Shown one piece after another: positions 8,021 through 56,785 of a DNA stretch of 62,301 nucleotides (position 1 is the first letter of the stretch; the number at the start of each line of letters is the position of its first letter). The notes under the pieces are model-generated. The model was given only the letters and a program-made list of their open reading frames with translations, ran no database searches and was not told where the DNA came from. The stretch is from an uncultured Gammaproteobacteria bacterium (lineage in GTDB: Bacteria > Pseudomonadota > Gammaproteobacteria > Immundisolibacterales > Immundisolibacteraceae). The stretch covers positions 1 to 62,301 of the forward strand of contig CAJXVN010000001.1 in the NCBI GenBank assembly GCA_913060775.1, in the 5' to 3' direction. A program made the position numbers and the translations under genes.

Positions 8021-8210
8021 ACAAACGTTTTTGAGGTTAATCAATGACTATCAAACACATTTGACATTAACCAACGCGGAATTATTAACAACAAACCTCT
8101 TTGTGGTTAATCAAAGAAGATTAAACCGAGTTGACGTTAACTAAAATTGAATGAGCAACCACAAAGGTGATTGAGGTTTACCGATGAGCATCAAACCTAC
8201 TGGTCACAGA
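8021..8210. repeat. Imperfect 70-bp tandem repeat, about 2.7 units, AT-rich
   Basis: Units 8021-8090, 8091-8160 and 8161-8210 share acaaa..ttg(a/t)ggtta(atcaa)..tcaaac..ttgac(a/g)ttaac cores. About 70% of aligned positions match by eye. Confidence 0.7.
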
Positions 8211-8277
8211 CCAATACCGTTCAATCAAGGACAACACCGGCCCGCTTAGTGCTATGCGTCGCCAACACGGCTCCGGC

Positions 8278-25020: not shown

Positions 25021-25752
25021 ATGAAATCAGAACAATTATCTGTCGATAGTCACCTGGTGCCTGCTGCTCCATTCACCCACTCCTCAGTAGCAGAGGATCA
25101 CGGCGTGATTCTCGTTGATGCGGCTCACCCGCTGCGTGCTCGGGCCGAAGCCTATATAAAACGGGTCTATCGCCGAGTTTTCTCGGCGCAAGTCAACCAT
25201 TTTTCTGCCCAGCTCCTGGTCAAGCTCGATGCGCAACAACGCATCATCGGCACCGTGGGCCTGACGTTGGCCGGCAAGCAGGCCCTTTTTGTCGAACAGT
25301 ATCTAAGCCAACCCGTGACGCACCTGCTGGCCGCTGACCCAAATGCTCAGGCACGGACCGAACAAAAAATTGTCGAGATCGGCAATCTTGCCATGGTCGA
25401 CCGCTGCTCGGTACGCCAGGTAATCTGCTTTCTCAGCCAATTTATGCTCGAACAGAAGGTGGACTGGGTGGTATTCACGGCCAGAACCGAGCTGCTTAAC
25501 AGTTTTAAACGCCTGGGACTTCCCCTGACCCACCTGGCCGATGCCAGCCGGGATAGCATCGACGACAATAACGACACCTGGGGTAGCTACTATGCGGGGT
25601 CCCCAAAGGTGGTCGCAGGGCGCCTTCAGGATGTGCTGTCGCTACAGATCGTTACCGAGACGGCGCAGTCTGCGGCTAATCCCTCGCCGGATTGCTCAGC
25701 ACTGCTGACAATGATTGCCTTGCCAGGTTTGGGTAAGGCGGCCTGTATTTAG
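25021..25752 (+). CDS. Thermostable-hemolysin-family (T_hemolysin-like) protein
   Basis: The blocks LFVEQYL..P, IVEIGNLA, WVVFTARTELLNSFKRLGLPL..LADA and WGSYY...PKVVAG match my memory of this family. Confidence 0.6.
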   Translation: MKSEQLSVDSHLVPAAPFTHSSVAEDHGVILVDAAHPLRARAEAYIKRVYRRVFSAQVNHFSAQLLVKLDAQQRIIGTVGLTLAGKQALFVEQYLSQPVTHLLAADPNAQARTEQKIVEIGNLAMVDRCSVRQVICFLSQFMLEQKVDWVVFTARTELLNSFKRLGLPLTHLADASRDSIDDNNDTWGSYYAGSPKVVAGRLQDVLSLQIVTETAQSAANPSPDCSALLTMIALPGLGKAACI

Positions 25753-27272: not shown

Positions 27273-27358
27273 ACAGTCTGAATGAGTAATCGCACTAGCC
27301 ATGGCATCCAGCCCCGCTGATTCAACCCCGCTTTCACCCTAATCAGGAGAACGAGTTC

Positions 27359-38098: not shown

Positions 38099-38764
38099 CT
38101 ACATACCGACAATTACGCCTGCACAGTCCTGGCTTGGGCTGGCTGCGGCCACATTCCAAACGTTACCAGTTATACAGGCTGCAAAAGCACCGTTTTGAGA
38201 TGCTTGAAAAATCCCACCATTCGGATTGCCATCATCAATTTTTCGATCGATCTCCGCGATAATTCCCACCGGAATTCGTCGGCCAGAAATCAGTTCATGG
38301 CTATTCCCTGCGGTGCCAACCGCCTGGCTACCAAAGGCGACATGCATCGTGCCGCTAAAAGGGTTCGGCAAACAGGTTACATCGGGGCAACCGTAGTCAC
38401 TGGCACTGGCGGTGCCATTAAAATTGCCGGTCAGAAATCCAGCCACTCCTAACTGTGCCCACAACTGACCCTCTTCGGCGCCTCCAGCGACCTGTCCATT
38501 GCCATTACCATTGGCGATAGTCGTGCCTGCGGGAGGGTTAGGCAGATTAACCAGTGCCTGGGAATAATCGCCCGGCAACGCCCGGAAACGATCCTGAAAC
38601 GCATAGTAAGCCGCTTTGACCCCGTCGATCTGGTTAATCGTGCTGCGCACTTTCGCCGTCTGGATCAACTCCTGGCCCTTAAGGGCACCACCGAGTATCA
38701 GACCAATAATCACCAACACAATGGAGATTTCGATCAGGGTAAAACCAGATTGTTGCTGCTTCAT
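38099..38764 (-). CDS. Type IV pilin-like protein (prepilin N-terminal methylation domain)
   Basis: MKQQQSG|FTLIEISIVLVIIGLILGG class III signal. GAGGA lies 8 nt upstream of ATG 38764. The longer ORF to 38854 was rejected. Confidence 0.85.
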   Translation of the reverse strand: MKQQQSGFTLIEISIVLVIIGLILGGALKGQELIQTAKVRSTINQIDGVKAAYYAFQDRFRALPGDYSQALVNLPNPPAGTTIANGNGNGQVAGGAEEGQLWAQLGVAGFLTGNFNGTASASDYGCPDVTCLPNPFSGTMHVAFGSQAVGTAGNSHELISGRRIPVGIIAEIDRKIDDGNPNGGIFQASQNGAFAACITGNVWNVAAASPSQDCAGVIVGM

Positions 38765-38838
38765 TCGCTTAATCCTCGGAAAACTAATTAATTCAAACGT
38801 GCCGAGCGTCGATCGCTCCGGCCTCTGAACACAGAAAG

Positions 38839-38853
38839 GCAAACACCATGCCA
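38839..38853 (-). promoter_or_regulatory. Sigma-54 (-24/-12) promoter for the pilin gene
   Basis: The minus strand reads TGGCAT-GGTGT-TTGCC against the consensus TGGCAC-N5-TTGCW. It lies ~75 nt upstream of the pilin ATG, and a sigma-54 activator is encoded in the locus. Confidence 0.65.
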
Positions 38854-38965
38854 ATAGTTAAAATACTGCCAACAGCGCTTATATTAGCGTTTCTTCATCA
38901 AAAAAACCTGACGAAGAAAAGGCGTCTGCACCTTATCGGCGGCACTTCCGTCGAAAACTTGACAC

Positions 38966-39688
38966 TTATTCTGACGTTAACAACTCATATCGTTCCAGCA
39001 AAAACCTCAACTCGGCGGGATCTGAGACCTCCCCACTCTCGATCAACGCCCCCAGCATGACTGCTGCGGTCTCTGCCTCGCCCATGTCTTCGCGCAGAAA
39101 TATCTCCATCTGTCTGGCCCAGCCAGGAATCGGTAATCCCTCGGGCGCGGCCCGCAATGCCTGGGCGTAATGGAGTGCGAGTGGCAAGTCGCCAAGGTGA
39201 TGTCGAACCACCGTGATTGAATGAGTAAGCCAGCGCCAGCGCCGCCCCGGGTCATCGACATAGGCCCGATAGACCAGGTCTGCCATTAGTCGCCGCTTCT
39301 CTTCCTGATTAACCTCACCGTAAATACGACTGGCTAGCAACAGTGGGTATTGACCACGGGGATCGAGATTCAAAATCTGTTCGAGCCAGGCAATGACCCG
39401 AGGATAGTCGAGCTGCTGATAGGGAAGGCTTAACCCTGGCTGCTGATCAAACGCCTGCAACCAGAGCGTCATTAACCGCGCGACAGCAACCGGGTCGGCG
39501 CTGCCAATCATGGCGAACATTCTCTGTGGAGGATCTGGCAACTCTTCGGCGGCGGCGTACCAGGCATCGCGGTTTACGGCGGTAACGATTTTCAGCGTCA
39601 ACACCAGCGCCAGCAGCACCAGTAGTCGCGCGGGTGCCGGTCGCCCCGGATGGGTGCCCCTCCAGCCCGCAGACAGATCAAATTTCAC
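38966..39688 (-). CDS. Hypothetical membrane-anchored or periplasmic protein
   Basis: A GTG start at 39688 overlaps the upstream stop (GTGAAATTTGA). There is an N-terminal hydrophobic anchor (LLVLLALVLTLKIV). No family was recognised. Confidence 0.45.
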   Translation of the reverse strand: MKFDLSAGWRGTHPGRPAPARLLVLLALVLTLKIVTAVNRDAWYAAAEELPDPPQRMFAMIGSADPVAVARLMTLWLQAFDQQPGLSLPYQQLDYPRVIAWLEQILNLDPRGQYPLLLASRIYGEVNQEEKRRLMADLVYRAYVDDPGRRWRWLTHSITVVRHHLGDLPLALHYAQALRAAPEGLPIPGWARQMEIFLREDMGEAETAAVMLGALIESGEVSDPAELRFLLERYELLTSE

Positions 39689-40424
39689 GGCGGTGAAAAT
39701 CGACCAACGCAGCGAGCAGAAGCAACAGACAGACCAGTAGCGCTTCGCCGATGACGGGTAATAACTGGGTAGCGCTACCATCCGCATAAATAAGCCAGCT
39801 ACTCTGGTTGTAACGGTTAAAGTTAGGAATTAACCAGCTGATCCAGACCAGCCCTGCGCCAACGCCACCGGCGGCAGCACTGGTGGTCATGAGCACAAAC
39901 GCCTCGATAGAGCGTGATAACAGATAAAAGGCCATGGAAAGAATAATCCCCGTGGCCAGGCTGGAAAAAGTCACCACCACAAACAGGGTGAACAGCGCCA
40001 TCACCAGTAGCTCCATAAACAGACCAATGACCCAGAGCACCAGTTGTTCCCAGGGTGACCACCAGCCCACTGCCAACAGCGCCAGCAACACCAGAACAAC
40101 CGCGTATCCACCGCTACCTAATGCACGACCCAGCAAATACTGGCCCCGCGACAGATCCAGTGCCAGGGTCAGCTCGACCTGACCATTGCTGGACTCTTCA
40201 CTAAAGCTGGCGCTCCCCTGTACAACGACAACTGCCACCGCCAGCAGGCGCACCAGGGCGGCGCTGAGTCCCAGTCTGAATGCATCCTGCTCAATCAGCG
40301 CCAGTTCGGCCACAAATCCACCCCCCAGCATTACCAGTAACAGCAATAGCAGATAAACCCGGGTTAGGGTGCTGACGACGGCGTCGTGCAGAAAATGGCC
40401 CGCGATGATGATGATTCGATGCAT
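39678..40424 (-). CDS. Polytopic membrane protein, ABC-2-type permease-like
   Basis: 248 aa with about six TM helices and a large first external loop. It is divergent from an operon containing an orphan ABC ATPase. Confidence 0.45.
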   Translation of the reverse strand: MHRIIIIAGHFLHDAVVSTLTRVYLLLLLLVMLGGGFVAELALIEQDAFRLGLSAALVRLLAVAVVVVQGSASFSEESSNGQVELTLALDLSRGQYLLGRALGSGGYAVVLVLLALLAVGWWSPWEQLVLWVIGLFMELLVMALFTLFVVVTFSSLATGIILSMAFYLLSRSIEAFVLMTTSAAAGGVGAGLVWISWLIPNFNRYNQSSWLIYADGSATQLLPVIGEALLVCLLLLLAALVDFHRREI

Positions 40425-40576
40425 TTGAAAACGGTCTAATTTAGATCGTGATAACGATCCGTTACGTTGATGTGATTAAAATTCCGTTACTATCCAGCCA
40501 TCAACCGCCCACCTGCCCGGTGACGCGATAACGATACTGCCCGGAGAATAGATCCGGTGTTGAGGATTCGAAGAAA

Positions 40577-42256
40577 TTGTCGCACGAGACCACCGCCTCC
40601 ACATCTAAAGATAGTCAGCTAACCCGATTTATCCCGGCGTTACTCGGGTTATCGCTAATACCGCTTCACCTTACCAATTTTATTAGCGGTGCCTATCTGG
40701 ATTGGTTGTTAATCACCAACCACCTGCTTTTTGCCGGCCTCTGGTATGTTTCGGCAAGCGGCTGGCGACAGGCGTTAGTCCATCTGGTCGTCACCGGGGT
40801 TGGACTCGTCGCGGTCGCCCTTACCTGGTCAATACCGACGGCGACCACGGCCTGGCTGCTGGTGCTCACATCCCTGGTTAGCGCCCATGCGGTCACCGGA
40901 TCCCGCCTTTCATTGCTACTGCTGCTGTCGAGCGCCTATCTGTTGGCGGTCGTTGGTTACCAGCATTTCTATGTCGACCCTTTGGGGCCAACGAATGCCC
41001 CACTAGTCGCAACGCTGACCCTAAACACCCTGGCGAGTCTCGCCTTCGCCGCCTGTTTGGTCCCCCTGCCCACGCCAATCGATCCTGAAACGGAAAAATT
41101 CATTGGCCGTGCCCGAGGCCTTTATGCGGCGGTTGCTCTCGGTACGCTTGTCGCCGTTTGCGCGTTAACAGCAATCCCCGCGATGACAGGCCCACAGAAC
41201 TTTACTCAACTGATCACCGCCATCGCTGGACTCTTGAGCGTGCTGAGTGTACTGATTGGGCGCCGGGGAGCAGCTAGCGCCGATCCCTCTGAGTCGGCCG
41301 ATGAATTCCGCCAATGGGTGGCCCAAACACTTGAAAAACCGGCTGTCTGGAAAAACGAAGAGGATTTCCTGCTGGACCGCTTAACGGCTCTCGTGGATCT
41401 GGTAGGAATCAATGGTCTGGAATGGCAAATTGCCAACTTTTCGGGTTCCCTTGGCACCATCGGCGATCGCAATATGCAGGTCGAAACCGCTGACGGTGTC
41501 ATCGTCGCAACACTCGACCATGCTCCCTCCGGCGTTTTCATACAACGCATGCAATTGGCGTTGGCACTGCTCAACACCCTGGTCCGATTCCATCTCCAGC
41601 AGGCTCAGCTAAAAACGCAGAGTCATCTGGAAAGTATTTATGAAACCGGGGCCAGAATAACCCACGATGTTAAGAACCTGTTGCAATCACTGAACACTCT
41701 GACCACGGCCGTGGAACACAGCAAACCGGATCAGGCTGCCCAGATTCAAGTCCTTATCCGGAAACAGCTACCGGTCATTCGTCAGAAATTACAGACCACA
41801 CTGGAAAAGCTCGAAGCGCCCGAAGACGTATCCTCCACCTATCAGGTGGCACGGATCTGGTGGGAAAAACTGCGCGCCAGGTACGAATCGGAGCACCTTA
41901 TTTTCGATCTTCAATTGAGCATGGATTATCTGATCCCCCGTGATCTGTTCGAACGGGTCGCTGAAAACCTGCTTGAGAATGCTCAGCGCAAGCGCCAGAC
42001 TGAACCGGACATCACCATTCGTATTGAGTTTGCGGTAACCGAGCAACGCATTACCCTGCGGGTAACCGATACTGGCTCGCCGGCACCTGCAGAAATCGCC
42101 AGCGTGCTGTTCAAAGGGCCCATCGATTCGACCGGAGGCTACGGTATCGCGCTCTACCAGTGCGCCACTCAGGCATTGCGCCAGGGGTTTGAACTAAGGC
42201 TTACCCATAATGAGCCTGGCTGTGTGAGTTTCTGTCTCAGCGGAGAGATCGATTGA
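40577..42256 (+). CDS. Multi-TM sensor histidine kinase (PrsK-like architecture)
   Basis: About eight N-terminal TM helices, H-box ARITHDVKNLLQSL and a G-box GGYGIALYQC. TTG start. Confidence 0.8.
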   Translation: MSHETTASTSKDSQLTRFIPALLGLSLIPLHLTNFISGAYLDWLLITNHLLFAGLWYVSASGWRQALVHLVVTGVGLVAVALTWSIPTATTAWLLVLTSLVSAHAVTGSRLSLLLLLSSAYLLAVVGYQHFYVDPLGPTNAPLVATLTLNTLASLAFAACLVPLPTPIDPETEKFIGRARGLYAAVALGTLVAVCALTAIPAMTGPQNFTQLITAIAGLLSVLSVLIGRRGAASADPSESADEFRQWVAQTLEKPAVWKNEEDFLLDRLTALVDLVGINGLEWQIANFSGSLGTIGDRNMQVETADGVIVATLDHAPSGVFIQRMQLALALLNTLVRFHLQQAQLKTQSHLESIYETGARITHDVKNLLQSLNTLTTAVEHSKPDQAAQIQVLIRKQLPVIRQKLQTTLEKLEAPEDVSSTYQVARIWWEKLRARYESEHLIFDLQLSMDYLIPRDLFERVAENLLENAQRKRQTEPDITIRIEFAVTEQRITLRVTDTGSPAPAEIASVLFKGPIDSTGGYGIALYQCATQALRQGFELRLTHNEPGCVSFCLSGEID

Positions 42257-42990
42257 CCAGCGCAATTTCGATCGACCGGGTGACGTTAGGACCTAATAGT
42301 CGCCGCCTTAACGGCGTTACGATTGATATTAAAGCGGGCGAATATTTTGGCCTGGTAGGTATGAACGGTGCGGGGAAAACCTCATTAATAAAATGCCTGC
42401 TCGACTTCTGTCGTCCCAATGTGGGCGAGGTGTCGCTGTTTTCGCAACCGGCCAGCTCAGTTAGCGCCCGAGACCCGGTGGCTTACCTGCCGGAACGATT
42501 CAAGGCCAATGGCCGGCTGACGGGGGAGCAATTTCTACGACGGATGATGCAGCTCTATCAGGTCGCTTACGACCGTGACGCCACCCTGGCCCTGTTCGAC
42601 ACGCTATCGCTTTCCGCCGATGCGCTAAATCTGCCGCTAGGCAAGCACTCCAAAGGTATGGCGCAGAAAATTGGGCTGGTGGCCTGCCTGCTTAGTCATC
42701 GGCCACTATTAATCCTCGATGAACCCATGAGCGGACTTGATCCCTATGCCAGGGTGCGACTAAAAACACTGCTGCAGGAGCGCCGCCTTGCCGACTCTCC
42801 CGCCCCCACCCTGCTGCTCTCTTCGCACATGCTGGTTGACGTCGAAACCCTCTGCGACCGCATTGCGATTCTTCACGAGGGAAAGTTGCGATTTTCTGGC
42901 TCACCGGCAGAATGTTGCAATCAATTTAATGCCAACAGTCTGGAACAGGCCTACATGAACTGCATCACCGCCATTGGATCTCCGCCATGA
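42253..42990 (+). CDS. ABC transporter ATP-binding protein
   Basis: Walker A GMNGAGKTS, a degenerate signature HSKGMAQK and Walker B LLILDEP. It has 4-nt overlaps with both neighbours. Confidence 0.85.
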   Translation: MTSAISIDRVTLGPNSRRLNGVTIDIKAGEYFGLVGMNGAGKTSLIKCLLDFCRPNVGEVSLFSQPASSVSARDPVAYLPERFKANGRLTGEQFLRRMMQLYQVAYDRDATLALFDTLSLSADALNLPLGKHSKGMAQKIGLVACLLSHRPLLILDEPMSGLDPYARVRLKTLLQERRLADSPAPTLLLSSHMLVDVETLCDRIAILHEGKLRFSGSPAECCNQFNANSLEQAYMNCITAIGSPP

Positions 42991-44501
42991 AACCTGTCAA
43001 ACCGCTTTTACTGCTGATCGACGATGATCCGGTCATTCGCGACTCTCTGGAGTTCGTACTGCAGGCCGATTTTGAAATCGAGACAGCCGAATCCCGTAAC
43101 GATGTTCAGGAGCTACTGACTAAACTCCGTCGCGCGCCCGATGCAGTCCTGCTCGATCTGGGGCTGCCACCGGACGTGCACTCCCCGGAACAGGGCTTCG
43201 CACTGATCAGCGATCTGCTGGCCGTCTCCCCGAATATAAAAATACTCATTCTTAGCGGTCAGGACGACCGTAAAAATGTCAAACATGCGCTGGCGCTGGG
43301 TGCTTTTGATTTCGTCGCCAAACCCTGCGAAGTGGAGCTGCTGCGCAGCCGCCTGACTCACTCCCTGTTTATTCGCGATGCCGAGGTATCGCTGCAGCAG
43401 GAAGTGATCCGCCGCGAGGACGGATTCATTGGCAACTCACCGTCGATGAACAAATTACGCGCCCAGGTCGAACAGTTCGGCGACACCCCGTTTCCGGTGC
43501 TGGTCGAGGGGCCGTCGGGCAGCGGCAAGGAACTGGTCGCTAAAGCTTTACACGATGGCACTTCTCGGGCCGAGGCGCCCTACCTGGTGATCAACTGTGC
43601 GGCCATGTCCGCCCAGTTGATCGAAGCGCAGTTGTTTGGCCACACCAAAGGTGCCTTTACCGGAGCGACCGCTGCAAAAGCAGGATTCTTTGAAGAGGCA
43701 GACAAGGGCAGTCTCTGTCTGGACGAAATTGGTGAACTGCCGCTTGAACTGCAGGCCAAATTATTACGAATTCTGGAAAACGGTGAGTTCTACCGCATCG
43801 GAGAAACCCAGGTCCGCCACTCCTCTGCACGCATCATTGCCGCCACCAACCGAGATTTACGCAATGAAGTTGCCAGGGGAGCATTTCGTGAGGATCTTTA
43901 CCACCGATTAAGCGTGTTCCGTATTCAGATTCCGCCACTGGCTGAACGCGGTGATGATCGCCTGTTACTGCTGGAACACTTCAACAAATTTTATAGCAAA
44001 CAACTCGACACTCGCCCCTTCGCATTGACGGACGAGGCGCTGAACGCCTGGCGTCGCTACGCCTTCCCCGGCAATGTGCGCGAATTGAAAAACATTGTGG
44101 TGCGGTTGAACTTGCGGCTTAGGGGAGGTACGGCCAGTATCGAAGACATACGCAATGAATTTGACATTGAACAGGAACTTCACCCGCCGATCGAAGCCGT
44201 TCAACCCGAATCCACCGCAGCTCCGGACCGGGATATGGTCGCTTCAATCGCTCCACAGACCTCTAATCATGACGAGGAAAATCAGGAAGCCCGTATTAAA
44301 TTCGCTCACCAACAACTGCTGAACACTGAAGAATTCAAGCTCGATGATGTGCTTCGCCAGTGGGAGGGGTACTTCATCAAGGCAGCGCTAAAAGAAGCGG
44401 GTGGCAATTTGAGCAAAGCGGCCCGAAAACTTGGGATTAATCGCACCACACTCTACAGCCGGGTCCAGAAATACCCGGAACTACAACTCGACTCCGACTA
44501 G
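42987..44501 (+). CDS. Sigma-54-dependent response regulator (NtrC family, PrsR-like receiver)
   Basis: Receiver domain (LLLIDDD...DLGLPPD), AAA+ domain (GPSGSGKE, GAFTGA, ...), and a C-terminal Fis-type HTH (GNLSKAARKLGINRTTLYSRV). Confidence 0.9.
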   Translation: MKPVKPLLLLIDDDPVIRDSLEFVLQADFEIETAESRNDVQELLTKLRRAPDAVLLDLGLPPDVHSPEQGFALISDLLAVSPNIKILILSGQDDRKNVKHALALGAFDFVAKPCEVELLRSRLTHSLFIRDAEVSLQQEVIRREDGFIGNSPSMNKLRAQVEQFGDTPFPVLVEGPSGSGKELVAKALHDGTSRAEAPYLVINCAAMSAQLIEAQLFGHTKGAFTGATAAKAGFFEEADKGSLCLDEIGELPLELQAKLLRILENGEFYRIGETQVRHSSARIIAATNRDLRNEVARGAFREDLYHRLSVFRIQIPPLAERGDDRLLLLEHFNKFYSKQLDTRPFALTDEALNAWRRYAFPGNVRELKNIVVRLNLRLRGGTASIEDIRNEFDIEQELHPPIEAVQPESTAAPDRDMVASIAPQTSNHDEENQEARIKFAHQQLLNTEEFKLDDVLRQWEGYFIKAALKEAGGNLSKAARKLGINRTTLYSRVQKYPELQLDSD

Positions 44502-44508
44502 CCGAGTT

Positions 44509-45573
44509 ATGTACCTGGAGCATTTCGGTCTCTCCCGTCAGCCGTTTCAGATCACTCCGGATACCGACTTTTTCTTTCCCGGCGCCGAGCGTCAGGACAC
44601 CCTGAATGGCCTGATCCATAGCGCCGAGCACAACGAGGGCATTATCAAGGTCGTCGGCGAGATTGGCAGCGGCAAAAGCCTGCTCTGCCGCATGCTCGCC
44701 AATCAACTCCCGGATAATTTTCAGGTCGTCTTTCTGGCTAATCCCAACCTGAATGCTGATGCCGTCGTTACCGCCATCCTGGGCGACCTCGGCGTTGCGC
44801 CCGTCCCGAACGGTTTTAACCACCCAACCCAGTTGTTGCAACGTTACCTGCTGGAACAGAACCAGCAAAACCGACGGGTACTGCTTCTGGTAGAGGAAGC
44901 CCAGGCCATGTCACCGGCAACGCTTGAGGCCCTGCGGCTACTCACCAATCTGGAAACGGCCAAAACCAAGCTCCTGCGGATGATCCTGTTTGGCCAGCCG
45001 GAACTCGACCAGACGCTCAACACCCACGCCCTGAGACAATTTCGCGACCGCATTACCCAGAGTTTTTATCTCCGCGCGGTCCAGCTCGACGAATCCGGCG
45101 CCTATCTGCACCACCGACTGGGCGTTGCCGGTTACCAGGGCCCGCCACTGTTCCAGGATGAGGTGTTAACCCGATTGCAGCAGGAGAGCGCAGGCCGACT
45201 GCGACCTCTAAATGTCCTCGCGGATAAAACCCTGTTAGCTGCTTATGTGGATGATGCCCGGGTACCAACCCTGTCACACCTGCAACAGGCGTTACAGGAG
45301 ATCAATCTGTCCGACCCTGCCGGGGTTTCCCCGACCTCAAGCGCCGAGGATCTGGAACACCTCTCGTGGCGACAGGTTGCCGCCTTTATCGGCGGGGGAA
45401 CCACTGCCCTCGCGCACCAATGCGTTTTAAAATCGGCCAGAATCGCCCGTTACCTTATGCGCTCAATGGCGAATTCACTTAAGATGCTGGCTAGTCACCC
45501 GCTAACAACCAAGCTGACTTCAACGATAGGAAAAAAACGGCGTGCCATCGCTCGGTATTATGGACGCGACTAG
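44509..45573 (+). CDS. ExeA/MshM-like AAA ATPase
   Basis: MYLEHFGLSRQPFQITPDTDFFF... and Walker A GEIGSGKS. The start was moved to the internal Met at 44509. Confidence 0.8.
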   Translation: MYLEHFGLSRQPFQITPDTDFFFPGAERQDTLNGLIHSAEHNEGIIKVVGEIGSGKSLLCRMLANQLPDNFQVVFLANPNLNADAVVTAILGDLGVAPVPNGFNHPTQLLQRYLLEQNQQNRRVLLLVEEAQAMSPATLEALRLLTNLETAKTKLLRMILFGQPELDQTLNTHALRQFRDRITQSFYLRAVQLDESGAYLHHRLGVAGYQGPPLFQDEVLTRLQQESAGRLRPLNVLADKTLLAAYVDDARVPTLSHLQQALQEINLSDPAGVSPTSSAEDLEHLSWRQVAAFIGGGTTALAHQCVLKSARIARYLMRSMANSLKMLASHPLTTKLTSTIGKKRRAIARYYGRD

Positions 45574-45576
45574 AAA

Positions 45577-48896: not shown

Positions 48897-50581
48897 ACAA
48901 ACCATTACCCATTGGCCTTCAACTCCAGCAAAAAGGCCTGGTCACCGAGGATCAGATTCAGATAGCCCTGCTGGAGCAGAAAAAAAACGGTGCCCCGCTG
49001 GCTCGTATTCTGGTTGCGATGGGTTTTATCAGCGATGCTGTCGCCCGTGACGCACTGAGTGAAAGTTTTGGCCAGGAAAGTGTCGACCTCAGCGAACTGG
49101 TACCTGACGAAGAGGCACTGGCCCTGGTGCCGCAGGAGCTGGCACGCCGACACCACCTGTTACCGATTAGCCTTGAGGAAAACGGCACTCAATTAGTCGT
49201 TGCCATGGCCGACACTCATGACATGATCGCTCTGGATCAACTCCAGGCGCTGGTCGGTAACCAAATTGGGGTCAAGCCGGTGATGGCCGGCGAAGGTGAT
49301 CTTGATGCCAATATTGATGATTTCTACGGTTACTCGGTCTCCATAGACGCCATCCTTAAAGAGATCGAAACCGGGACCATGGATCTGTCCTCGATCGAAT
49401 CGATGGGCCTTGAAACCTACGAACAGCCAGTGGTTCGATTGGTTAACGCACTGCTCACCGAAGCCGTCAAACAAAGAGCGTCGGATGTCCATTTTGAGCC
49501 AGAAGCACAGTTCGCTCGTGTCCGTTACCGCATTGACGGGGTACTGCGGCAGATCCGTAGCCTGCACAAAGATTACTGGCCCGCCATGGTGGTCCGGCTA
49601 AAAATCATGTCGGGCATGAACATCGCCGAGAACCGTGCCCCCCAGGATGGCCGTATCAGCCTGCGCTTGCGAGGCCGGCAGGTGGATTTTCGAGTCTCTG
49701 CCCAGCCAACGGTCCACGGCGAAAACATTGTGTTACGCATTCTTGATCGTAACCAGGCTATCGTGCCGCTTGATCATCTTGGACTTTCCGAGACGGCACT
49801 CACTCAATTGCAACTCATGATCGCGCGACCGGAAGGCATCATCCTTGTCACCGGCCCCACTGGCAGCGGCAAAACCACCACCCTCTACTCGGTGCTCAAT
49901 CACATTAATTCTGAGCGCATCAACATCATGACCCTGGAAGACCCGGTGGAGTACCCCCTGAGTCTGATTCGTCAGTCAACCGTCACAGAAGGAAAACTTG
50001 ATTTTGCGGAAGGTATTCGCTCGATGATGCGCCAGGATCCAGACGTCATCCTGGTGGGCGAAATCCGTGACAAGGAAACCGCCGAAATGGCCTTCAGAGC
50101 AGCCATGACCGGCCACCAGGTGCTCTCGACTCTGCACACTAACTCTGCTCTTGGGGCGTTACCTCGTCTGGCGGATATCGGCGTCAGTAATCAGATTATC
50201 GCGGGCAATATTATCGGCATCAGCGCGCAACGATTAGTACGCCATCTCTGCAAGGAGTGCCGTGAAGCCTACCGTCCGGGAGAACTGGAACGGAAACTAC
50301 TCGGCATCACGGATGCCGACATCACCCTGTATCGTGCGGTTGGCTGCGATGCCTGCCAGATGCAGGGCTATAAAGGTCGTTTTTCAGTCACCGAGGTGGT
50401 TCGTTTCGATGACGATCTCGACGAACTACTGCTACAGAATGCTCCCCTCACCGCTATCCGCAATCTGGCAAGGGAAAAAGGCTTTCAAACCCTTGCCGAC
50501 GATGGCACCGCGCGTATCCTCGATGGACAAACCAGTATCGACGAGATCACCCGCGTGATCGATCTCACTCAGCGTCTTTGA
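48893..50581 (+). CDS. GspE/PilB/MshE-family assembly ATPase
   Basis: Walker [12 protein letters not shown], Asp and His boxes, tetracysteine CKEC...CDAC, and an N-terminal MshEN/T2SSE_N-like domain. Confidence 0.9.
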   Translation: MNKPLPIGLQLQQKGLVTEDQIQIALLEQKKNGAPLARILVAMGFISDAVARDALSESFGQESVDLSELVPDEEALALVPQELARRHHLLPISLEENGTQLVVAMADTHDMIALDQLQALVGNQIGVKPVMAGEGDLDANIDDFYGYSVSIDAILKEIETGTMDLSSIESMGLETYEQPVVRLVNALLTEAVKQRASDVHFEPEAQFARVRYRIDGVLRQIRSLHKDYWPAMVVRLKIMSGMNIAENRAPQDGRISLRLRGRQVDFRVSAQPTVHGENIVLRILDRNQAIVPLDHLGLSETALTQLQLMIARPEGIILVTGPTGSGKTTTLYSVLNHINSERINIMTLEDPVEYPLSLIRQSTVTEGKLDFAEGIRSMMRQDPDVILVGEIRDKETAEMAFRAAMTGHQVLSTLHTNSALGALPRLADIGVSNQIIAGNIIGISAQRLVRHLCKECREAYRPGELERKLLGITDADITLYRAVGCDACQMQGYKGRFSVTEVVRFDDDLDELLLQNAPLTAIRNLAREKGFQTLADDGTARILDGQTSIDEITRVIDLTQRL

Positions 50582-50602
50582 TGATCTGGTTAAAAAACAC
50601 CG

Positions 50603-51805
50603 ATGCCCATACTTAATTATGTAGCGATTGATGCCGAAGGCCACCGCCAGAAAGGCAGCCTGAGTGCCGTTAGTGAGCAGGACCTAGAGACCCGATTGAT
50701 GGCGATGAATCTGAGCCTGATTTCCTCGCGGGAACAGAAGCTCGGCAAACGCAGTGGTCGCCGCGGGGTCCGCCGTAAAGATTTGATCAATCTCTGCTTT
50801 CATCTGGAACAGTTGATCCGCGCCGGCGTGCCTCTGCTGGAGGGATTAGAGGACATTCAACAAACCACGGACAACCGGGCGCTAAAAATCATCATTACCT
50901 CGATAATCGCGGACCTGCAGGGAGGAAAACTATTTTCCGAAGCACTGGCCGACTACCCGGAAGTTTTCGACAAGGTGTTTATTACCCTGGTCCAGGCCGG
51001 TGAAACCACCGGCGGACTGGCCGATATTTTTGCCGAATTAACCCGGTCGATTAAATGGCGCGATGAGTTAATCGCCAAAACGAAACAACTGTTAACTTAT
51101 CCGGCCATCGTCTCATTGGTCATGCTCGGGTCGATCAGCTTTATGTTCGGCTATCTGGTTCCACAGCTAGTGGATTTTCTAATCAACATGGGCCAGACGC
51201 TGCCGCTACAGACCCGTGCCCTGATTGCTATTTCGGACTTTTTTGTCGCCTGGTGGTGGGCCCTGTTTGGTTTTCCGCCGCTGTTGATCATCGTTGTTCT
51301 AGTAATCGCCAAACGTAACCCACATCTACGTTACCGCATCGACCAGTTCAAGATATCGGTATGGGTGATTGGCCCGATCCTGTACAAAATCATGCTGGCC
51401 AGAATGAGTAATACCCTCTCGATGATGTATGCGGCGGGCATACCTTTTATCGAATCCATCCGTATGAACCGTGAAATAAGCAACAACCTGGTGATGGAAG
51501 CCGCCCTTGACGAAGTGGCTGATTCCATTTCTCGGGGGACTCAGATCACTACAGCATTCTCTCAGGCAGGCATGTTTTCACCGCTGGTCATTCGCATGTT
51601 AAAAATCGGCGAAACCACCGGCGCCCTGGATCAGTCGCTGAAAAATGTTAGCTATTTTTACGACCGGGAAGTCGATGACGACGTCGGTCGATTGCAGGCC
51701 ATGATCGAGCCAGCCTTAATCGTCATTATGGGGGTAATGCTCGGCTTCGTCATTGTCTCGGTTCTCGGTCCGGTCTATGACATGCTAGGCAAGCTGGATA
51801 TTTAG
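50603..51805 (+). CDS. GspF/PilC/MshG-family platform protein
   Basis: 400 aa with two T2SSF repeats and three TM segments. Confidence 0.9.
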   Translation: MPILNYVAIDAEGHRQKGSLSAVSEQDLETRLMAMNLSLISSREQKLGKRSGRRGVRRKDLINLCFHLEQLIRAGVPLLEGLEDIQQTTDNRALKIIITSIIADLQGGKLFSEALADYPEVFDKVFITLVQAGETTGGLADIFAELTRSIKWRDELIAKTKQLLTYPAIVSLVMLGSISFMFGYLVPQLVDFLINMGQTLPLQTRALIAISDFFVAWWWALFGFPPLLIIVVLVIAKRNPHLRYRIDQFKISVWVIGPILYKIMLARMSNTLSMMYAAGIPFIESIRMNREISNNLVMEAALDEVADSISRGTQITTAFSQAGMFSPLVIRMLKIGETTGALDQSLKNVSYFYDREVDDDVGRLQAMIEPALIVIMGVMLGFVIVSVLGPVYDMLGKLDI

Positions 51806-51809
51806 AATC

Positions 51810-53444
51810 ATGGCCGACCAACTGATACTAATGATCTATCCTCAGAGCGCCTCGATGCAACGCTGGCAGGGGCGACGGTTGCTGGATCAATGGCCGTTGA
51901 CCACCGCTGAACAGAGCCGGGAATCAATCGCCAGCATCATCAAAGACCATGCACAAAGCCCGGTTACGGTTGTGCTGGATACCGCTGACGAGGAAATTCG
52001 CCAGGCTTTGATTCCTAAAATCCTGGGTAATGGCCGCCGCCAACTGCAGAAACGGACCCTGCAACAGGCATTCCCCAATAACGAATATCGCGCCCTTAGC
52101 TCTCAGGGTAGTGTTCGTGGAAAACGCACCGACGAGCGACTACTACTATTAGCAATTACTCACGACGATCTGCTCAACAGCTGGCTAACGTTACTTGCTG
52201 ATGCTCATGCGCTGGTGTGCCGGATCACCACTGCATCAATGCTACTGACAGAGCTGGCCCGGCAGATTGGGGGACAAAACGAGTATGAGCTGCTGGTATA
52301 CCGGCATCCGGAACAGGGATTGCGCCAGCTTTTCCTAAACAATGGACGGCCTGGGCTCAGTCGATTATCGATGCCTACCACTGGGAGCGGAAACATCGTC
52401 GATCAATTTGCCACCGAAGCGGCGAATACCCGTCTGTATCTGAATAACTCCAAAGCCATGCCTCGCGATGCGACTTTGACTGTCCATATCCTCAATCGTG
52501 ATCACATGAACACCGCCTTAAACGCAGCGCTCGCCGATCTGACTCAGGTAGACCTGCAACTGAGCAACCTTAGCGGCCTGGTGAAGCGGTTCTCGTTGAA
52601 GCTCCCGGATATCGAACAATCGGCTGAGCACCTGCTTGGTTCCATAGCCGCTAATTACCCACAGAAACTGATGGATCTGGCGCCTGCAAGTGTGCTCCGA
52701 GAATACAGCCGCTACACCACGGGCCGTTATGCTGTTTACGCTGCAGCAGTCGCCACCGCCGCCATGCTGATGTGGTCGGCGACCGAATTCTTTGCTGTGT
52801 GGGAGATTTCTAATCGGGCTGATGAACAGAAGGAGTTGCTAAGCCGCTGGCAACAACTGGAACAGAATGCCATCGCCGACGCACTGCCCAGTTCGGTTCC
52901 TCCGGCCACCATGAAGCAAGCATCGGAACTTATCGAACAGCTGCGAGAAGAACGTCGCTTTCCAGAACCGGCCCTGAGACAAGTCGCGGCCGCCCTGGCC
53001 GACCACCAACACCTGCGCTACCGAAAAATCGAGTGGGCCGCTCCTGATCAACCGCTCACCCGTTATCAACAGCCAAAGCAGATCGATGACAATATCGACC
53101 AGTTCACCGACTCAATGGAGCCTGAAGGTACACCCGGACCGACCGAGCAGCTGTTTCTGGAATTTCAGATCGAACCCTTCGATGGAGACTATCTGAGCGC
53201 TACTATAGAAGCAGAGAACACCGTAAAAATACTTGCCCAGTTGCCGGGGGCGAGAAGTGCCGAAATGGTCAGTGCACCACTAAACGTTGATTCCCAATCG
53301 GATTTCAGCGAAAACATCGCGTTGGGTGATCAAGCTGAACGGCAAAAACCCCAGGCCCGATTTCAGGTAGTCATCACCCTGGAGAATCCAGCCAATGTCA
53401 CTACCGGTGTTCCTAAAGGCTGGCGCCCGGAGACAATGCCTTGA
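51810..53444 (+). CDS. Hypothetical; PilM/PilN-fusion-like (MshI-like) assembly protein
   Basis: A ~320-aa cytoplasmic domain, one TM helix (YAVYAAAVATAAMLMW), then a coiled coil. The assignment is inferred from position and topology only. Confidence 0.4.
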   Translation: MADQLILMIYPQSASMQRWQGRRLLDQWPLTTAEQSRESIASIIKDHAQSPVTVVLDTADEEIRQALIPKILGNGRRQLQKRTLQQAFPNNEYRALSSQGSVRGKRTDERLLLLAITHDDLLNSWLTLLADAHALVCRITTASMLLTELARQIGGQNEYELLVYRHPEQGLRQLFLNNGRPGLSRLSMPTTGSGNIVDQFATEAANTRLYLNNSKAMPRDATLTVHILNRDHMNTALNAALADLTQVDLQLSNLSGLVKRFSLKLPDIEQSAEHLLGSIAANYPQKLMDLAPASVLREYSRYTTGRYAVYAAAVATAAMLMWSATEFFAVWEISNRADEQKELLSRWQQLEQNAIADALPSSVPPATMKQASELIEQLREERRFPEPALRQVAAALADHQHLRYRKIEWAAPDQPLTRYQQPKQIDDNIDQFTDSMEPEGTPGPTEQLFLEFQIEPFDGDYLSATIEAENTVKILAQLPGARSAEMVSAPLNVDSQSDFSENIALGDQAERQKPQARFQVVITLENPANVTTGVPKGWRPETMP

Positions 53445-54082
53445 GCACCTTTAGCCTCAAACGAGATGATTATCTCGGCCAGGCGCTGATCAAGGCAGCA
53501 ATCATTATCGGCGGCGGCCTGCTAATCGTCGCTCTGGCCTGGCAATTACGCTCAACGGCCGAAACAAAAGAACGGTCGTTTCAGCAACAGATGGATTATC
53601 TTCGCCAGGAGGTAGCGAGAATCCGCCAGGACCGCACCTGGACCGAAACGTACCAGCCCAATTACGAGAAAATGGTCGCTGATGGCCTGATCGGTGAAGA
53701 GAGCCGCCTCGAATGGCGAGCGCTGGTGCTCAACCTGGCGAAACAGCTCAAATTACCAAAAGTCGAAATCACCTTCAGTCCCCGCAAAAATAGAAACGCG
53801 GCGGACGACTTCTTCGACGAACTGGAAGCCCCATCGTCAATCGCCAGTTATGAGTCAAAAATGTCCCTCGATCTAACCCTCTATCACGCGCTGGACCTGC
53901 CACACCTGCTGGAGCAGTTAGATCAGTCAGCGACAGCTATCCTTATGCCCAAACGGTGCTATCTGGCACTCGACAAGGACCCGGTCTACCTGGACGCGGA
54001 ACCGTTAGTTGAATCGAATTGCGACCTTGGCTGGGTGACTGTCCAGCCAACCCCAGCCGCCGAGGCCTCCGGTGTTTATTAA
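53441..54082 (+). CDS. Hypothetical; PilO/MshJ-like bitopic protein
   Basis: An N-terminal TM helix followed by a coiled coil. The TTG start overlaps the upstream stop. Confidence 0.4.
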   Translation: MSTFSLKRDDYLGQALIKAAIIIGGGLLIVALAWQLRSTAETKERSFQQQMDYLRQEVARIRQDRTWTETYQPNYEKMVADGLIGEESRLEWRALVLNLAKQLKLPKVEITFSPRKNRNAADDFFDELEAPSSIASYESKMSLDLTLYHALDLPHLLEQLDQSATAILMPKRCYLALDKDPVYLDAEPLVESNCDLGWVTVQPTPAAEASGVY

Positions 54083-54587
54083 AGGATGGTTACGGCACCT
54101 GCCGGTGATCACACTGGTCGGCCTGCTTTGCTCTCCGCTTCAGGCGGCGAACGATCCGATGGCCCGGCTTTTCTACACCCCACAGGAACGGGCGCGACTG
54201 GATACGATTCGCCTGTCCGGGATGGAAACGCTCCGCTCCACGACCAACCAGGAAAGTATCACTGCTAAAACGGTCACGCTGAGCGGCATCCTTAAAAAGC
54301 GACAGGGCGGGCTACGTGCGTGGGTAAACGGGAAACCTCTGGAGACCAGTGCTACCGACCTTCCGGTGCGGGCGGGCCGTGATCTGACAGAACAAAATCA
54401 ATTGCCTTTATTACTACCCGGGGGATTAACTGCCGATCCAAAAGTGGGGCAGGTGGTCAATTTAATAAACGGCGAGCTGACCGAAAGCTATCAGCAGCCG
54501 CTGGAATCTCCGTCACCAACCGCTGAAACGGTGAGCAGCCCGCCCCTTGACTCAGAGGACGCCTCGGATGGGCGAGTCACTGACTAA
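54072..54587 (+). CDS. Hypothetical secreted protein (PilP/MshK-like position)
   Basis: Signal peptide (VITLVGLLCSPLQAA) and a Ser/Pro-rich C-terminus. GTG start. Confidence 0.35.
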   Translation: MFIKGWLRHLPVITLVGLLCSPLQAANDPMARLFYTPQERARLDTIRLSGMETLRSTTNQESITAKTVTLSGILKKRQGGLRAWVNGKPLETSATDLPVRAGRDLTEQNQLPLLLPGGLTADPKVGQVVNLINGELTESYQQPLESPSPTAETVSSPPLDSEDASDGRVTD

Positions 54588-56049
54588 TTGCCACCGCAAC
54601 CCCTGCAGCAACCATCGCCAGCAGGGGGTAGCGCTAATCCTCATGCTAACGCTCCTGGTACTGGCTGGCCTGGGACTGGTGCTCACCGGTCTGAATCTCT
54701 CCGATGGCCAGGCCGAGCGGGAACAGATCACCACGGCGGCGCTGGCCGAGGCTAAACAGGCGCTGTTAGATCACGGCGTATTTCTTGGCTACGAGAGCAG
54801 CACTGACCCCGGCTATTATTCCTTGCCCTGCCCGGACAGAAGCGTGGACGCAATTGCTGAGGGTGGAGCAGACGGCAGCTGTACGGTGGGACTCGGAAAA
54901 ACGGCCCTTGGCCGACTACCCTGGCGCACCCTGGGGTTGCCGCCAATCATTGATGGTAGCGGGGAGTGTTTATGGTATGTCCTCTCCGGAAACCAGAACA
55001 CTTCAAAACTGGCCAGCAACGGCTCCCTGTTTAATCCCGACAGCAAGGGGCAGCTAGAAATCCGCAATCGATCGAATACGATTCTGGCGGGCAATTCGCC
55101 CGATGAGCGAGCGATCGCCGCGATTATCGCCCCGGGCAGTGCCCTCGCCGGCCAGAATCGCACGGCTCTGCCAAACGGGGTGGATCACTGCGGTGGCAAC
55201 TACACGGCTGACAACTACCTCGACAATACTAATGGAATTGACAACGCCAGCCCCTCAACCATTACCGATGCTGTCACTCAGCTGATCACGACCCATCAGG
55301 CGACGGAAAGCCTGAATGACCGCATAATCTGGATCACCCGTCAGGAGCTGGCAGACGTTTTTAGTCAAAAAGTGAACTATCAGGATAAAAACGGCCGAAC
55401 CTTCAACGACAAAATCGACAACCTCCTTCTTGAGATCGGTATCTGCCTGGCTAATTACGACACCGGCGGATTATCCCGGCTGCCCTGGGCCGCACCGCTC
55501 GCCCTGGCTGACTATCGAGTGGACGCCAACTATGATGACGCACCAAACCAGCTGTTCGGCCGGCTACCGATGAGAATTGATGACAGCAATACCGATAGCG
55601 GCAATGGTGCGGCGGCGAGCTACGTCGAAGATTGCCTGGCAGCCAACCCCAGCACCGAAATAGAGAACTACCGCAAGCATTGGAAGGATCACCTGTATTA
55701 TGCGGTGGCTGGTGATCACGCGGCTGATCAGGTGGCCCTGCCCAACTGCAATACGGGAAACTGCCTGAGCGTCGATGGCAATGGTGATTACGCTGCCATT
55801 ATCCTGTTTGCCGGCCTGCCAGTATCGACCCTCAATCAAATTCGAAACGACGCTTTTCCGGTCGGCGATGTTGATACCAAACAACAGCTGGCCAGCTATC
55901 TTGAAGGCTCAAATCTGGCCAATTTCCCAGACAATAACGGCGACAAAGATTACGCGAATACCGCACTCCCCGGCATTAACGACCGGCTTTTCTGCATCGA
56001 CTCAGCCGATCTACTCAACGGCATCCAGCCGGACGGCGCCTGTGACTAA
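54568..56049 (+). CDS. Large PilX_N-like minor-pilin/pseudopilin-like protein
   Basis: The N-terminus QQGVALILMLTLLVLAGLGLVL resembles the PilX N-terminal domain. It is followed by a ~450-aa Cys-containing extracellular region. The start is uncertain (54547 or 54568). Confidence 0.45.
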   Translation: MGESLTNCHRNPCSNHRQQGVALILMLTLLVLAGLGLVLTGLNLSDGQAEREQITTAALAEAKQALLDHGVFLGYESSTDPGYYSLPCPDRSVDAIAEGGADGSCTVGLGKTALGRLPWRTLGLPPIIDGSGECLWYVLSGNQNTSKLASNGSLFNPDSKGQLEIRNRSNTILAGNSPDERAIAAIIAPGSALAGQNRTALPNGVDHCGGNYTADNYLDNTNGIDNASPSTITDAVTQLITTHQATESLNDRIIWITRQELADVFSQKVNYQDKNGRTFNDKIDNLLLEIGICLANYDTGGLSRLPWAAPLALADYRVDANYDDAPNQLFGRLPMRIDDSNTDSGNGAAASYVEDCLAANPSTEIENYRKHWKDHLYYAVAGDHAADQVALPNCNTGNCLSVDGNGDYAAIILFAGLPVSTLNQIRNDAFPVGDVDTKQQLASYLEGSNLANFPDNNGDKDYANTALPGINDRLFCIDSADLLNGIQPDGACD

Positions 56050-56065
56050 AAGTAAAGATAACGTC

Positions 56066-56785
56066 ATGGAAAATTTCACCGGTAGCGCAGACAACCACGG
56101 CGGCTTTTCATTGATCGAAATAGCCATCGTGTTAGTCATAATTGGTCTAATTCTAGGTGGATTACTGGCCCCATTGAGCACCCAGCAGGAGATCAGTGAT
56201 ATCAAAGAGACCCAGCAAATCCTGGATGAAACTTTAGCCGCGCTATACGGTTATGCCTACAGTAATGGTGGCACGCTACCCTGCCCCGACACGGACGGCG
56301 ACGGCCTCGAAGACAGCGCCGCCAACTGTCCTCGCCGCGAAGGAGACGTTCCCTGGGCAACACTGGGCACACCGAGTGGCGATAGCTTTCGTGGCAATCG
56401 ACTGGGGTACCGAATCGACGCGACCCTGACCAACCATGCCACGATTTTCTGCGATTCGTCGAATCCGGCAACCATGAATATTTGCACCGACAACACCTGC
56501 GGCACCACCCTGACTGGCGCCGCTGCGTTGGTGATCTGGTCCCATGGCAAAAACGGTTTTGGTGCTACTAATGCGCAGGGCGGCACCAACGTAGCCCCGG
56601 TTTCACTCGATGAGAACGTCAACATCCACACGGCCAATGATGCCCTCGCCGCCAACGACAATTTCGTCAAGCGCACCCGTACCGATGCCTCATCAGCGGC
56701 GGGGGAATTCGATGACATGGTCGAATATGTAACCGATGTGCGCCTGTGCGCCAGGATGGTCGAGGCCGGCATTATTGCTCCCTGA
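56066..56785 (+). CDS. Type IV pilin-like protein (prepilin N-terminal methylation domain)
   Basis: MENFTGSADNHGG|FSLIEIAIVLVIIGLILGG. The ORF-track start at 55775 was rejected because it overlaps the upstream gene. Confidence 0.8.
   Translation: MENFTGSADNHGGFSLIEIAIVLVIIGLILGGLLAPLSTQQEISDIKETQQILDETLAALYGYAYSNGGTLPCPDTDGDGLEDSAANCPRREGDVPWATLGTPSGDSFRGNRLGYRIDATLTNHATIFCDSSNPATMNICTDNTCGTTLTGAAALVIWSHGKNGFGATNAQGGTNVAPVSLDENVNIHTANDALAANDNFVKRTRTDASSAAGEFDDMVEYVTDVRLCARMVEAGIIAP

Follow-up and report, generated by a model that had tools for sequence, protein, structure and literature searches.

What kind of machine is encoded by a type IV filament locus whose core genes resemble those of the pilus known as mannose-sensitive hemagglutinin (MSHA) but whose gene order and pilin set do not? 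The locus in question lies at positions 38099-56785 of a 62,301-nucleotide stretch of DNA, hereafter the window, from an uncultured gammaproteobacterium of the Immundisolibacteraceae. The open reading frame (ORF) list and domain scans place 16 genes there, each at the coordinates given by a first-pass annotation of the sequence, which had described an MSHA-like filament locus of non-canonical order. Reviews count six classes of bacterial type IV filaments, and describe MSHA as poorly characterised and confined to a few Proteobacteria (Denise 2019; Pelicic 2023).

The full parts list of a type IV filament is present, with three pilin-like substrates and a co-conserved kinase, sigma-54 regulator and ATP-binding cassette (ABC) module. 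In our judgement, the locus probably encodes a complete filament machine of a distinct, widespread and unnamed lineage that is related to the MSHA pilus.

The core machine is MSHA-like

All of the core components claimed earlier are found: an ExeA/MshM-like ATPase, a lipoprotein secretin, a tetratricopeptide repeat (TPR) protein, an extension ATPase and a platform protein. They follow the order mshM-L-N-E-G, after which come genes at the I, J and K positions, so that the description as an MSHA-like machine of non-canonical order holds. For comparison we used loci of the same kind in Immundisolibacteraceae and further Gammaproteobacteria (L001-L003, L005-L007 and L012), in a Woeseiaceae bacterium and two close relatives (L010, L013 and L015) and in Betaproteobacteria, Rhodocyclaceae and Burkholderiales included (L008, L009, L011, L016, L021 and L022), with the msh locus of Aeromonas caviae (L014) as reference. 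A genome scan with the secretin alignment, made with narrow patterns, yielded five loci; wider sampling came through protein look-ups.

The secretin passes the NCBIfam MshL equivalog TIGR02519 marginally, at 252.6 bits against a cut-off of 250.2, and scores 158 bits on GspD (cut-off 351) and 125 bits on PilQ. The same is seen across the family, in which secretins reach 248-265 bits on the MshL model (an annotated Legionella MshL reaches 256), about 95 bits over GspD and about 125 bits or more over PilQ. The true start of the window secretin is probably internal, 5' of the lipobox VTAGC. The ExeA/MshM-like protein matches AAA_22 at 90 bits; a corresponding gene is absent beside the Woeseiaceae-type members. 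The TPR protein has an acidic low-complexity N-terminus, a transmembrane (TM) segment at residues 174-192 and C-terminal TPR repeats.

The extension ATPase matches PF00437 at 427 bits and the PilF, PilB and GspE structures at 380-438 bits (393-438 for PilB/PilF). Its best solved relatives are PilF and PilB, to which it aligns from end to end, MshEN N-domain included; with GspE structures the alignment covers the C-terminal part only. The model for an MshE-related cyclic di-GMP (c-di-GMP) motif is passed as well, at 49.9 bits against a cut-off of 38. The first of these motifs reads PIG in the window clade (48893-49070), RLG in the betaproteobacterial L009 (from 13189) and PLG in the Woeseiaceae-type loci (L010, from 4448), so c-di-GMP control may differ among sublineages even though the motif model is passed. 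The platform protein matches PF00482 in two stretches (155.8 bits) and scores 302.8 bits on TIGR02120, under the equivalog cut-off of 424. For both platform and ATPase, the GspF and GspE models score slightly above those of PilC and PilB.

One arrangement is shared by a large family

Downstream of the platform gene stand four genes whose products, which we call X544, X213, X171 and X500, have no Pfam or NCBIfam match, even at E≤1, followed by the gene for the prepilin Pil2. The order secretin-(TPR or small protein)-ATPase-platform-X544-X213-X171-X500-Pil2 is kept in every fetched locus that spans these genes, and is partly visible in the fragmented L021; because the same core order recurs in every related locus fetched, the arrangement is not due to chance. 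A survey of synteny for all 16 genes had been proposed earlier. In the fetched loci the core order is general, while the kinase, the ABC genes and p273, a protein encoded beside the ABC-2 permease, occur in a subset of members.

The family is large. A word-indexed search gave 12 close homologues of X544, and an exhaustive profile search against 50%-identity clusters gave 1,966 at E≤1e-3 and 1,270 at E≤1e-10, of about 490-570 amino acids (aa). All sampled named members are called ‘hypothetical protein’, and the named ones come from metagenome-assembled genomes of Burkholderiales. X500 has at least 374 homologues, in Woeseiaceae, Rhodocyclaceae, Beggiatoa and other lineages. A search of a plasmid database with the ATPase returned nothing above 43% identity and no family member. 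Literature searches for a described system of such architecture found none. Since the arrangement defines a large unannotated lineage, the earlier suggestion of an undescribed subclass related to type IV pili is a fair reading.

The locus is related to, and distinct from, MSHA operons

By the TXSScan definition, MSH systems have mshA, mshE, mshG and mshL, along with mshM, as mandatory genes, and the published quorum is three mandatory genes and four in total (Denise 2019). These rules would probably label our locus MSH. With the MSHA systems of Vibrio cholerae and Aeromonas it shares an MshL-type lipoprotein secretin, an ExeA-like MshM, a TPR protein encoded after the secretin and MshM genes, an MshEN ATPase with a c-di-GMP motif, a GspF-type platform and a GspL-like fused PilM/N protein. 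It also shares their single locus without prepilin peptidase or PilT. The gain of MshN, a TPR protein, and the loss of PilT and peptidase from the locus are traits of MSH (Pelicic 2023); in the window a TPR protein follows the secretin, and neither PilT nor a peptidase was found.

The missing peptidase and retraction ATPase had been put forward as a distinguishing feature. No match to the Peptidase_A24 or PilT families appeared among the locus proteins or the 30 scanned upstream ORFs of at least 150 aa in the window. However, MSH loci lack both genes as a rule (Denise 2019; Jones 2015), and V. cholerae encodes PilT outside its MSHA locus (Jones 2015). The absence is therefore normal and does not set the locus apart.

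These likenesses raise the possibility of an ordinary MSHA operon with shuffled genes and no distinct biology, to which TXSScan or PGAP would give the label MSH or MshL. The MshL equivalog is passed, genes like mshM, mshN, mshE (with its c-di-GMP motif) and mshG are all there in a single locus without peptidase or PilT, and the TXSScan quorum is probably reached. The parts beyond this shared core argue otherwise, and we consider such an operon quite unlikely. The canonical order, described for V. cholerae (Jones 2015), is mshI-J-K-L-M-N-E-G followed by a pilin operon, and the ORFs of the A. caviae locus read mshH-I-I1-J-K-L-M-N-E-G-F-B-A-C-D-O-P-Q, whereas the window reads M-L-N-E-G-X544-X213-X171-X500-Pil2 with a second prepilin gene, pil1, divergent. 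No homology to MshI/J/K, MshF or MshB/C/D/O/P/Q is detectable in the family scans or in comparison with the Aeromonas msh locus. There are three pilin-like proteins, including the 500-aa X500, which has no Glu5, and the window also encodes a kinase, a sigma-54 regulator and, with p273, an ABC-2 transporter. X500, Pil2 and p273 are family-specific, Pfam and NCBIfam seeing only a generic pilin N-terminal motif in Pil2.

Sequence identities point the same way for three of the core proteins. The window and Aeromonas share 25% for MshL/secretin, 37% for MshE/ATPase and 29% for MshG/platform, compared to 36-45%, 57-60% and 41-44%, respectively, between beta- and gammaproteobacterial members of the family. 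For the MshM/ExeA-like protein, the values are 42.5% and 41-44%. In a neighbour-joining tree of 17 ATPase sequences with 100 bootstraps, the family ATPases are monophyletic in 100/100 replicates and the MshE proteins of Aeromonas and Legionella group together in 100/100, the two clades joining in 48/100.

The predicted fold of X544 resembles GspL, but a secretion system is unlikely

An AlphaFold 2 (AF2) model of X544, built from 12 homologues with a mean pLDDT of 74, starts with an actin-like (PilM-like) domain. A long helix follows, moderately hydrophobic around residue 310, then a coiled coil and, at the C-terminus, an alpha/beta domain. The best Foldseek matches are Pseudomonas aeruginosa PilM (5eou, E 4e-12) and the cytoplasmic domain of EpsL/GspL, which gives the highest target-normalised TM-scores (0.61-0.69). 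Because of these matches, X544 is supported at the fold level as a GspL/MshI-like fusion of PilM and PilN, predicted to combine a cytoplasmic actin-like domain with a membrane helix.

Genes like pilM/N, pilO and pilP had been claimed at these positions, and the PilM/N part stands at the fold level, whereas the PilO and PilP parts come from position and topology. In X213, residues 15-33 form a TM segment and two cysteines are invariant; X171 has an N-terminal signal-like segment. Profile searches of PDB sequences gave no match for either. Comparison by hhalign with the proteins at the PilO and PilP positions of an MSHA-type locus from Legionella, and with Aeromonas MshI/J/K, also gave nothing. 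Since every homology test failed, the assignment stays positional: X213 could be a PilO/GspM-like and X171 a PilP/GspC-like partner of X544.

The likeness to GspL raises a second possibility, that the locus is a secretion device resembling a type II secretion system (T2SS), in which a short periplasmic pseudopilus pushes folded exoproteins through the secretin. Like gspC-M, the locus runs secretin-ATPase-platform with an L-like and then an M-position protein later on, an order nearer to gspD-E-F...L-M than to mshI-J-K-L-M-N-E-G. The N-terminus of X500, the largest pilin-like protein, is GspK-like and lacks Glu5, the GspF and GspE models are slightly ahead, as noted above, and the reference ATPase most similar over aligned columns is XcpR, at 42.5%. 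The individual components nonetheless fit a T2SS poorly, and we regard this reading as unlikely. The secretin fits MshL about 95 bits better than GspD, and the ATPase carries the full MshEN N-domain that GspE structures leave unaligned. Proteins like MshM and at the MshN position are encoded. The candidate major pilin, Pil1 (220 aa), matches GspG at 25 bits (cut-off 89), and the GspH model scores 26-28 bits (cut-off 80), in both cases through the N-terminal helix only. There are no orthologues of GspG, and no equivalents of GspC, H, I and J; no obvious substrate genes occur in any sampled locus.

A type IVa pilus (T4aP) is likewise a partial match. The ATPase is PilB-like, but the window lacks PilT/U, PilD, a PilMNOPQ operon, the FimU/PilVWXE/PilY1 set and a PilQ-type secretin score.

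A three-pilin set includes a candidate filament cap

Pil1 and Pil2 share the motif G↓F(T/S)LIE (the arrow follows the conserved glycine), and both pass the N_methyl and TIGR02532 cut-offs. We consider Pil1 the candidate major pilin and Pil2 a candidate minor pilin. Pil1 shows 34-40% identity (E 1e-19 to 1e-27) to the 206-223-aa terminal pilins of L010, L011 and L013, which by sequence are its orthologues, and the orthologue of Pil2 elsewhere is a 251-269-aa pilin encoded directly after X500. In L010, L011, L013, L015 and L016, Pil1 directly follows Pil2. X500, Pil2 and Pil1 are thus a conserved three-gene set, contiguous in other members, from which Pil1 is relocated to the divergent side in the window lineage, along with the permease and p273. 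Neither window pilin has a tblastn match at E≤1e-3 in the Aeromonas msh locus, and pilin models match their N-terminal motif only.

The first-pass annotation had described a reduced set of two pilins at opposite edges plus a PilX_N-like protein. The reduction is real, and the edge pilins and X500 are the members of this three-gene set, the left pilin having moved; the PilX_N label has no profile support. The N-terminus of X500 reads RQQG↓VALIL in the window, without Glu5. Across the family it is R-Q-(R/Q)-G↓A-A-L-L in 47/49 sequences, and none of the 49 has Glu at position +5. Subunits lacking Glu5 cap the tip complexes of filaments (Pelicic 2023), and by analogy with this capping-subunit signature X500 is a candidate filament cap.

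In the AF2 model of X500, built from 49 homologues (pLDDT 86, pTM 0.82), the N-terminus forms a helix of 58 residues. Behind it comes a globular domain, about 415 residues long, in which nine cysteines are invariant or nearly so. Foldseek found no match for the model in PDB or BFVD (best E-values 2.5 and 0.57). X500 is weakly similar to the Pil2 family (E 5e-8 to the pilin of L009).

Regulatory and ABC genes accompany the candidate major pilin

The kinase, the ABC ATPase and the sigma-54 activator described at the head of the operon are present, and the locus also holds an ABC-2 permease and p273, which were missing from that description. The permease matches PF12698 at 32.9 bits (cut-off 31.6). 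p273 has no Pfam match and weak TPR-like matches in PDB; it has at least 934 homologues at E≤0.001, the best 120 of them at 43-95% identity, and its conservation exceeds that of every other locus-specific protein. It adjoins a permease homologue at the pilus locus in L005, L021 (10001-10726) and L022 (10001-10738), and in L005 and L021 this pair adjoins a Pil1-type pilin, with the kinase divergent as in the window. Kinase homologues occur in L001, L002, L005, L006 and L021, with a fragment downstream in L009, and the arrangement kinase-ABC ATPase-regulator recurs in L001, L002, L005 and L006. In betaproteobacterial L009, the ABC ATPase (45% identity) adjoins the sigma-54 regulator (52% identity). 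The ‘private regulatory and ABC module’ noted earlier is therefore real, and a large subset of family members has it.

The Woeseiaceae-type loci have unlinked sigma-54 activators and c-di-GMP genes nearby in place of this module. Their flanks (L010 13193-17330; L013 13011-19897; L015 13081-17239) encode HDOD proteins and sigma-54 activators, the latter GAF-containing in L010 and L015 and of other kinds elsewhere. A GGDEF/EAL protein and a PilZ protein are encoded in addition at L013, and L010 and L015 have giant CLIPPER/OmpA proteins.

Two known arrangements offer potential parallels to the window module. T4aP systems with PilS/PilR share the multi-TM kinase, the sigma-54 activator and a monocistronic pilin gene, preceded in the window by a candidate sigma-54 promoter. 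In the window, pil1 stands between a hairpin upstream and a 14-bp-stem terminator downstream, and looks like a separately, strongly expressed gene. Exact matches to TGGCA-N6-TTGC number two in the 62-kb window, with 1.0 expected by chance, and one of them is the candidate pil1 promoter. The adjacent regulator is thus a candidate for the control of pil1, as PilS/PilR control pilA, in the window lineage only. A different shared motif, TATGCATTG, lies upstream of the Pil1-type pilin in L010 (Woeseiaceae, about 12270-12290) and L011 (Rhodocyclaceae, about 12195-12210), and may be another conserved promoter or operator element at loci without the sigma-54 motif.

The other parallel is PilGHI of Myxococcus, which is required for pilin translocation and likewise combines an ABC ATPase with a permease and one more protein, encoded next to the pilin gene. 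The set of permease, p273 and ABC ATPase tied to Pil1 recalls PilGHI as a functional analogy.

Both parallels seem to us better analogies for the accessory genes than the PrsK and PrsR regulators to which the first-pass annotation had likened them. Taken at face value, that likeness would make the locus the accessory secretion or regulation apparatus of a PEP-CTERM/exosortase (XrtA) exopolysaccharide system. PrsK, PrsR, PrsT and TIGR03015 are indeed the top NCBIfam matches of kinase core, regulator, TPR protein and AAA protein, respectively, yet all four scores fall far under their curated cut-offs: 41.7 of 300 bits for PrsK, by the kinase core only, 360.6 of 502.6 for PrsR, 38.7 of 312 for PrsT and 189 of 324.5 for TIGR03015. 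The regulator scores nearly as well on the NtrC model (351.9 bits) as on PrsR, and the genes are embedded in a full pilus operon. No exosortase was found among the scanned window ORFs or in the Pfam lists of the sampled loci, PEP-CTERM proteins not having been searched for. We reject the PEP-CTERM link because the scores are sub-threshold and the window has no exosortase match, and regard it as extremely improbable.

A working model and its weak points

Taken together, these observations favour a filament machine whose lineage is distinct from the MSHA pilus but related to it. Judging from the sequences, its output is likely an adhesive surface pilus. In the model that we propose, a prepilin peptidase encoded elsewhere would cleave Pil1, Pil2 and X500 behind the conserved glycine. 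X500, which lacks Glu5, would join Pil2 in a small complex that primes assembly, and would form its cap. Held in place by X544, X213 and X171, the ATPase and platform would then polymerise Pil1 under this complex, and the filament would exit through the secretin. By the logic of PilS/PilR, the kinase and sigma-54 regulator would set pilin supply through the candidate promoter of monocistronic pil1, such that the major pilin may be sigma-54 dependent in the window lineage only. The ABC transporter and p273, if they resemble Myxococcus PilGHI, would act on the pilin or its membrane pool.

Several observations weigh against this picture. None of the searches detected homology between X213 or X171 and PilO/GspM or PilP/GspC. 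There are three pilin-like genes only, compared to at least four minor pilins in T4aP, T2SS and MSHA. The family ATPases join MshE in 48/100 bootstraps, and the first c-di-GMP-site motif lacks its Arg in the window clade. In the closest orthologous promoter, that of L005, the sigma-54 motif is imperfect (GG-N10-GT), and 5' of the Pil1 orthologues in L010, L011 and L013 (Woeseiaceae and Rhodocyclaceae) it is absent. It is because of this degeneration in L005 and absence in distant members that we propose sigma-54 control of the pilin for the window lineage only.

A bolder version, which we put forward tentatively and think somewhat doubtful, would make these loci a seventh bacterial type IV filament subtype, either a sister of MSHA or parallel to it, with four defining features. 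These would be a GspL-like family of alignment proteins of its own, X544; a minimal three-pilin set under a large, Cys-rich, Glu5-less cap whose fold has no PDB counterpart; an ABC-2 transporter and TPR-like membrane protein with a functional tie to the major pilin, present in a large subset; and sigma-54 regulators at or near many members. Such a subtype would be widespread in uncultured Beta- and Gammaproteobacteria of sediment, wastewater and soil, and may be a principal attachment organelle in Woeseiaceae, which are among them.

Under the favoured reading of a distinct MSHA-related lineage, a machine whose parts list differs from that of MSHA is common among environmental Beta- and Gammaproteobacteria. 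The proteins that characterise it, X544, X500, Pil2 and p273, have no Pfam or NCBIfam family of their own and are annotated as hypothetical; family models for them, and a class of its own for the system in tools of the TXSScan type, would be justified. The minimal priming complex, with one cap and one minor pilin, offers a test case for filament initiation. The model of X500 suggests a new extracellular domain fold, which may be an adhesin. With PilGHI of Myxococcus as the first case, the locus would also be the second in which an ABC transporter has a genetic tie to a pilin.

Layout and surroundings of the locus

The features of the locus are listed in Table 1. The plus-strand genes, from the kinase to Pil2, overlap or are spaced by no more than about 20 bp; Pil1, p273 and the ABC-2 permease are encoded on the minus strand. 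An antisense ORF at 47276-47839 (minus strand, 187 aa, Ser/Gly-rich), opposite the low-complexity N-terminal stretch of the TPR gene, is almost certainly spurious, and we set the antisense ORFs aside as by-products of low-complexity coding sequence.

Table 1. Features of the pilus locus, in window coordinates
Feature	Position	Strand	Remarks
Terminator-like hairpin	38016..38047	-	14-bp stem then T-run, directly 3' of Pil1
Pil1 prepilin, 220 aa, MKQQQSG↓FTLIEISIV	38099..38761	-	N_methyl and TIGR02532 matches
Candidate sigma-54 promoter TGGCAT-N5-TTGC	38839..38853	-	77 nt 5' of Pil1 ATG
p273, 240-273 aa (true length ~240), N-terminal TM, weak TPR-like motif	38966..39688	-	
ABC-2 family permease	39678..40424	-	PF12698; five hydrophobic segments detected
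Sensor histidine kinase, six N-terminal TM segments and HATPase_c	40577..42256	+	
ABC transporter ATPase, DrrA/NodI-like	42253..42990	+	Overlaps kinase and regulator genes
Sigma-54-dependent response regulator, REC, AAA+ and HTH_8	42987..44501	+	
ExeA/MshM-like AAA_22 ATPase	44509..45573	+	
MshL-type lipoprotein secretin, VTAGC lipobox	45577..47388	+	TIGR02519, Secretin, Secretin_N_2
Bitopic TPR protein, MshN position	47385..48896	+	
MshE/PilB-type extension ATPase, MshEN domain and MshE-related c-di-GMP motif	48893..50581	+	
GspF/PilC-type platform protein	50603..51805	+	
X544, GspL/MshI-like fusion, 544 aa	51810..53444	+	Predicted fold
X213, bitopic inner-membrane protein, PilO/GspM position	53441..54082	+	Role inferred
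X171, small exported protein, PilP/GspC position	54072..54587	+	Role inferred
X500, pilin-like protein without Glu5, 500 aa; candidate filament cap	54547..56049	+	
Pil2 prepilin, 239 aa, HGG↓FSLIEIAIV; candidate minor pilin	56066..56785	+	N_methyl and TIGR02532 matches

On the 3' side of the locus follow tRNA-Leu, tig, clpP and clpX, the other downstream ORFs of at least 80 aa being short overlapping ones; in the window clade, the pilus locus lies upstream of tRNA-Leu-tig-clpP-clpX-lon. Among the betaproteobacterial loci, L009 and L011 abut mlaF/mlaE, and L011 and L021 abut kefB-kdsD-kdsC-lptC-lptA. In L021 this neighbourhood runs on into lptB-rpoN, so that the pilus locus there stands beside the sigma-54 gene cluster.

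Further upstream in the window, a tmRNA gene (695-1102) precedes the gene of a DUF5655 protein and an entire type I restriction-modification system (hsdR 4451-7855, hsdS 8278-9444 and hsdM 9441-11009), and the region 695-11009 has the look of a genomic island with ssrA as its insertion site. An IS200-like Y1 transposase gene (15786-16274, minus strand) sits amid catabolic genes for an acyl-CoA dehydrogenase, a CoA-transferase and an HpcH aldolase. Positions 25021-29560 (plus strand) encode a thermostable-hemolysin-family protein, an AMP-binding enzyme, a Haem_oxygenas_2 iron enzyme, a short-chain dehydrogenase and a TPR protein.

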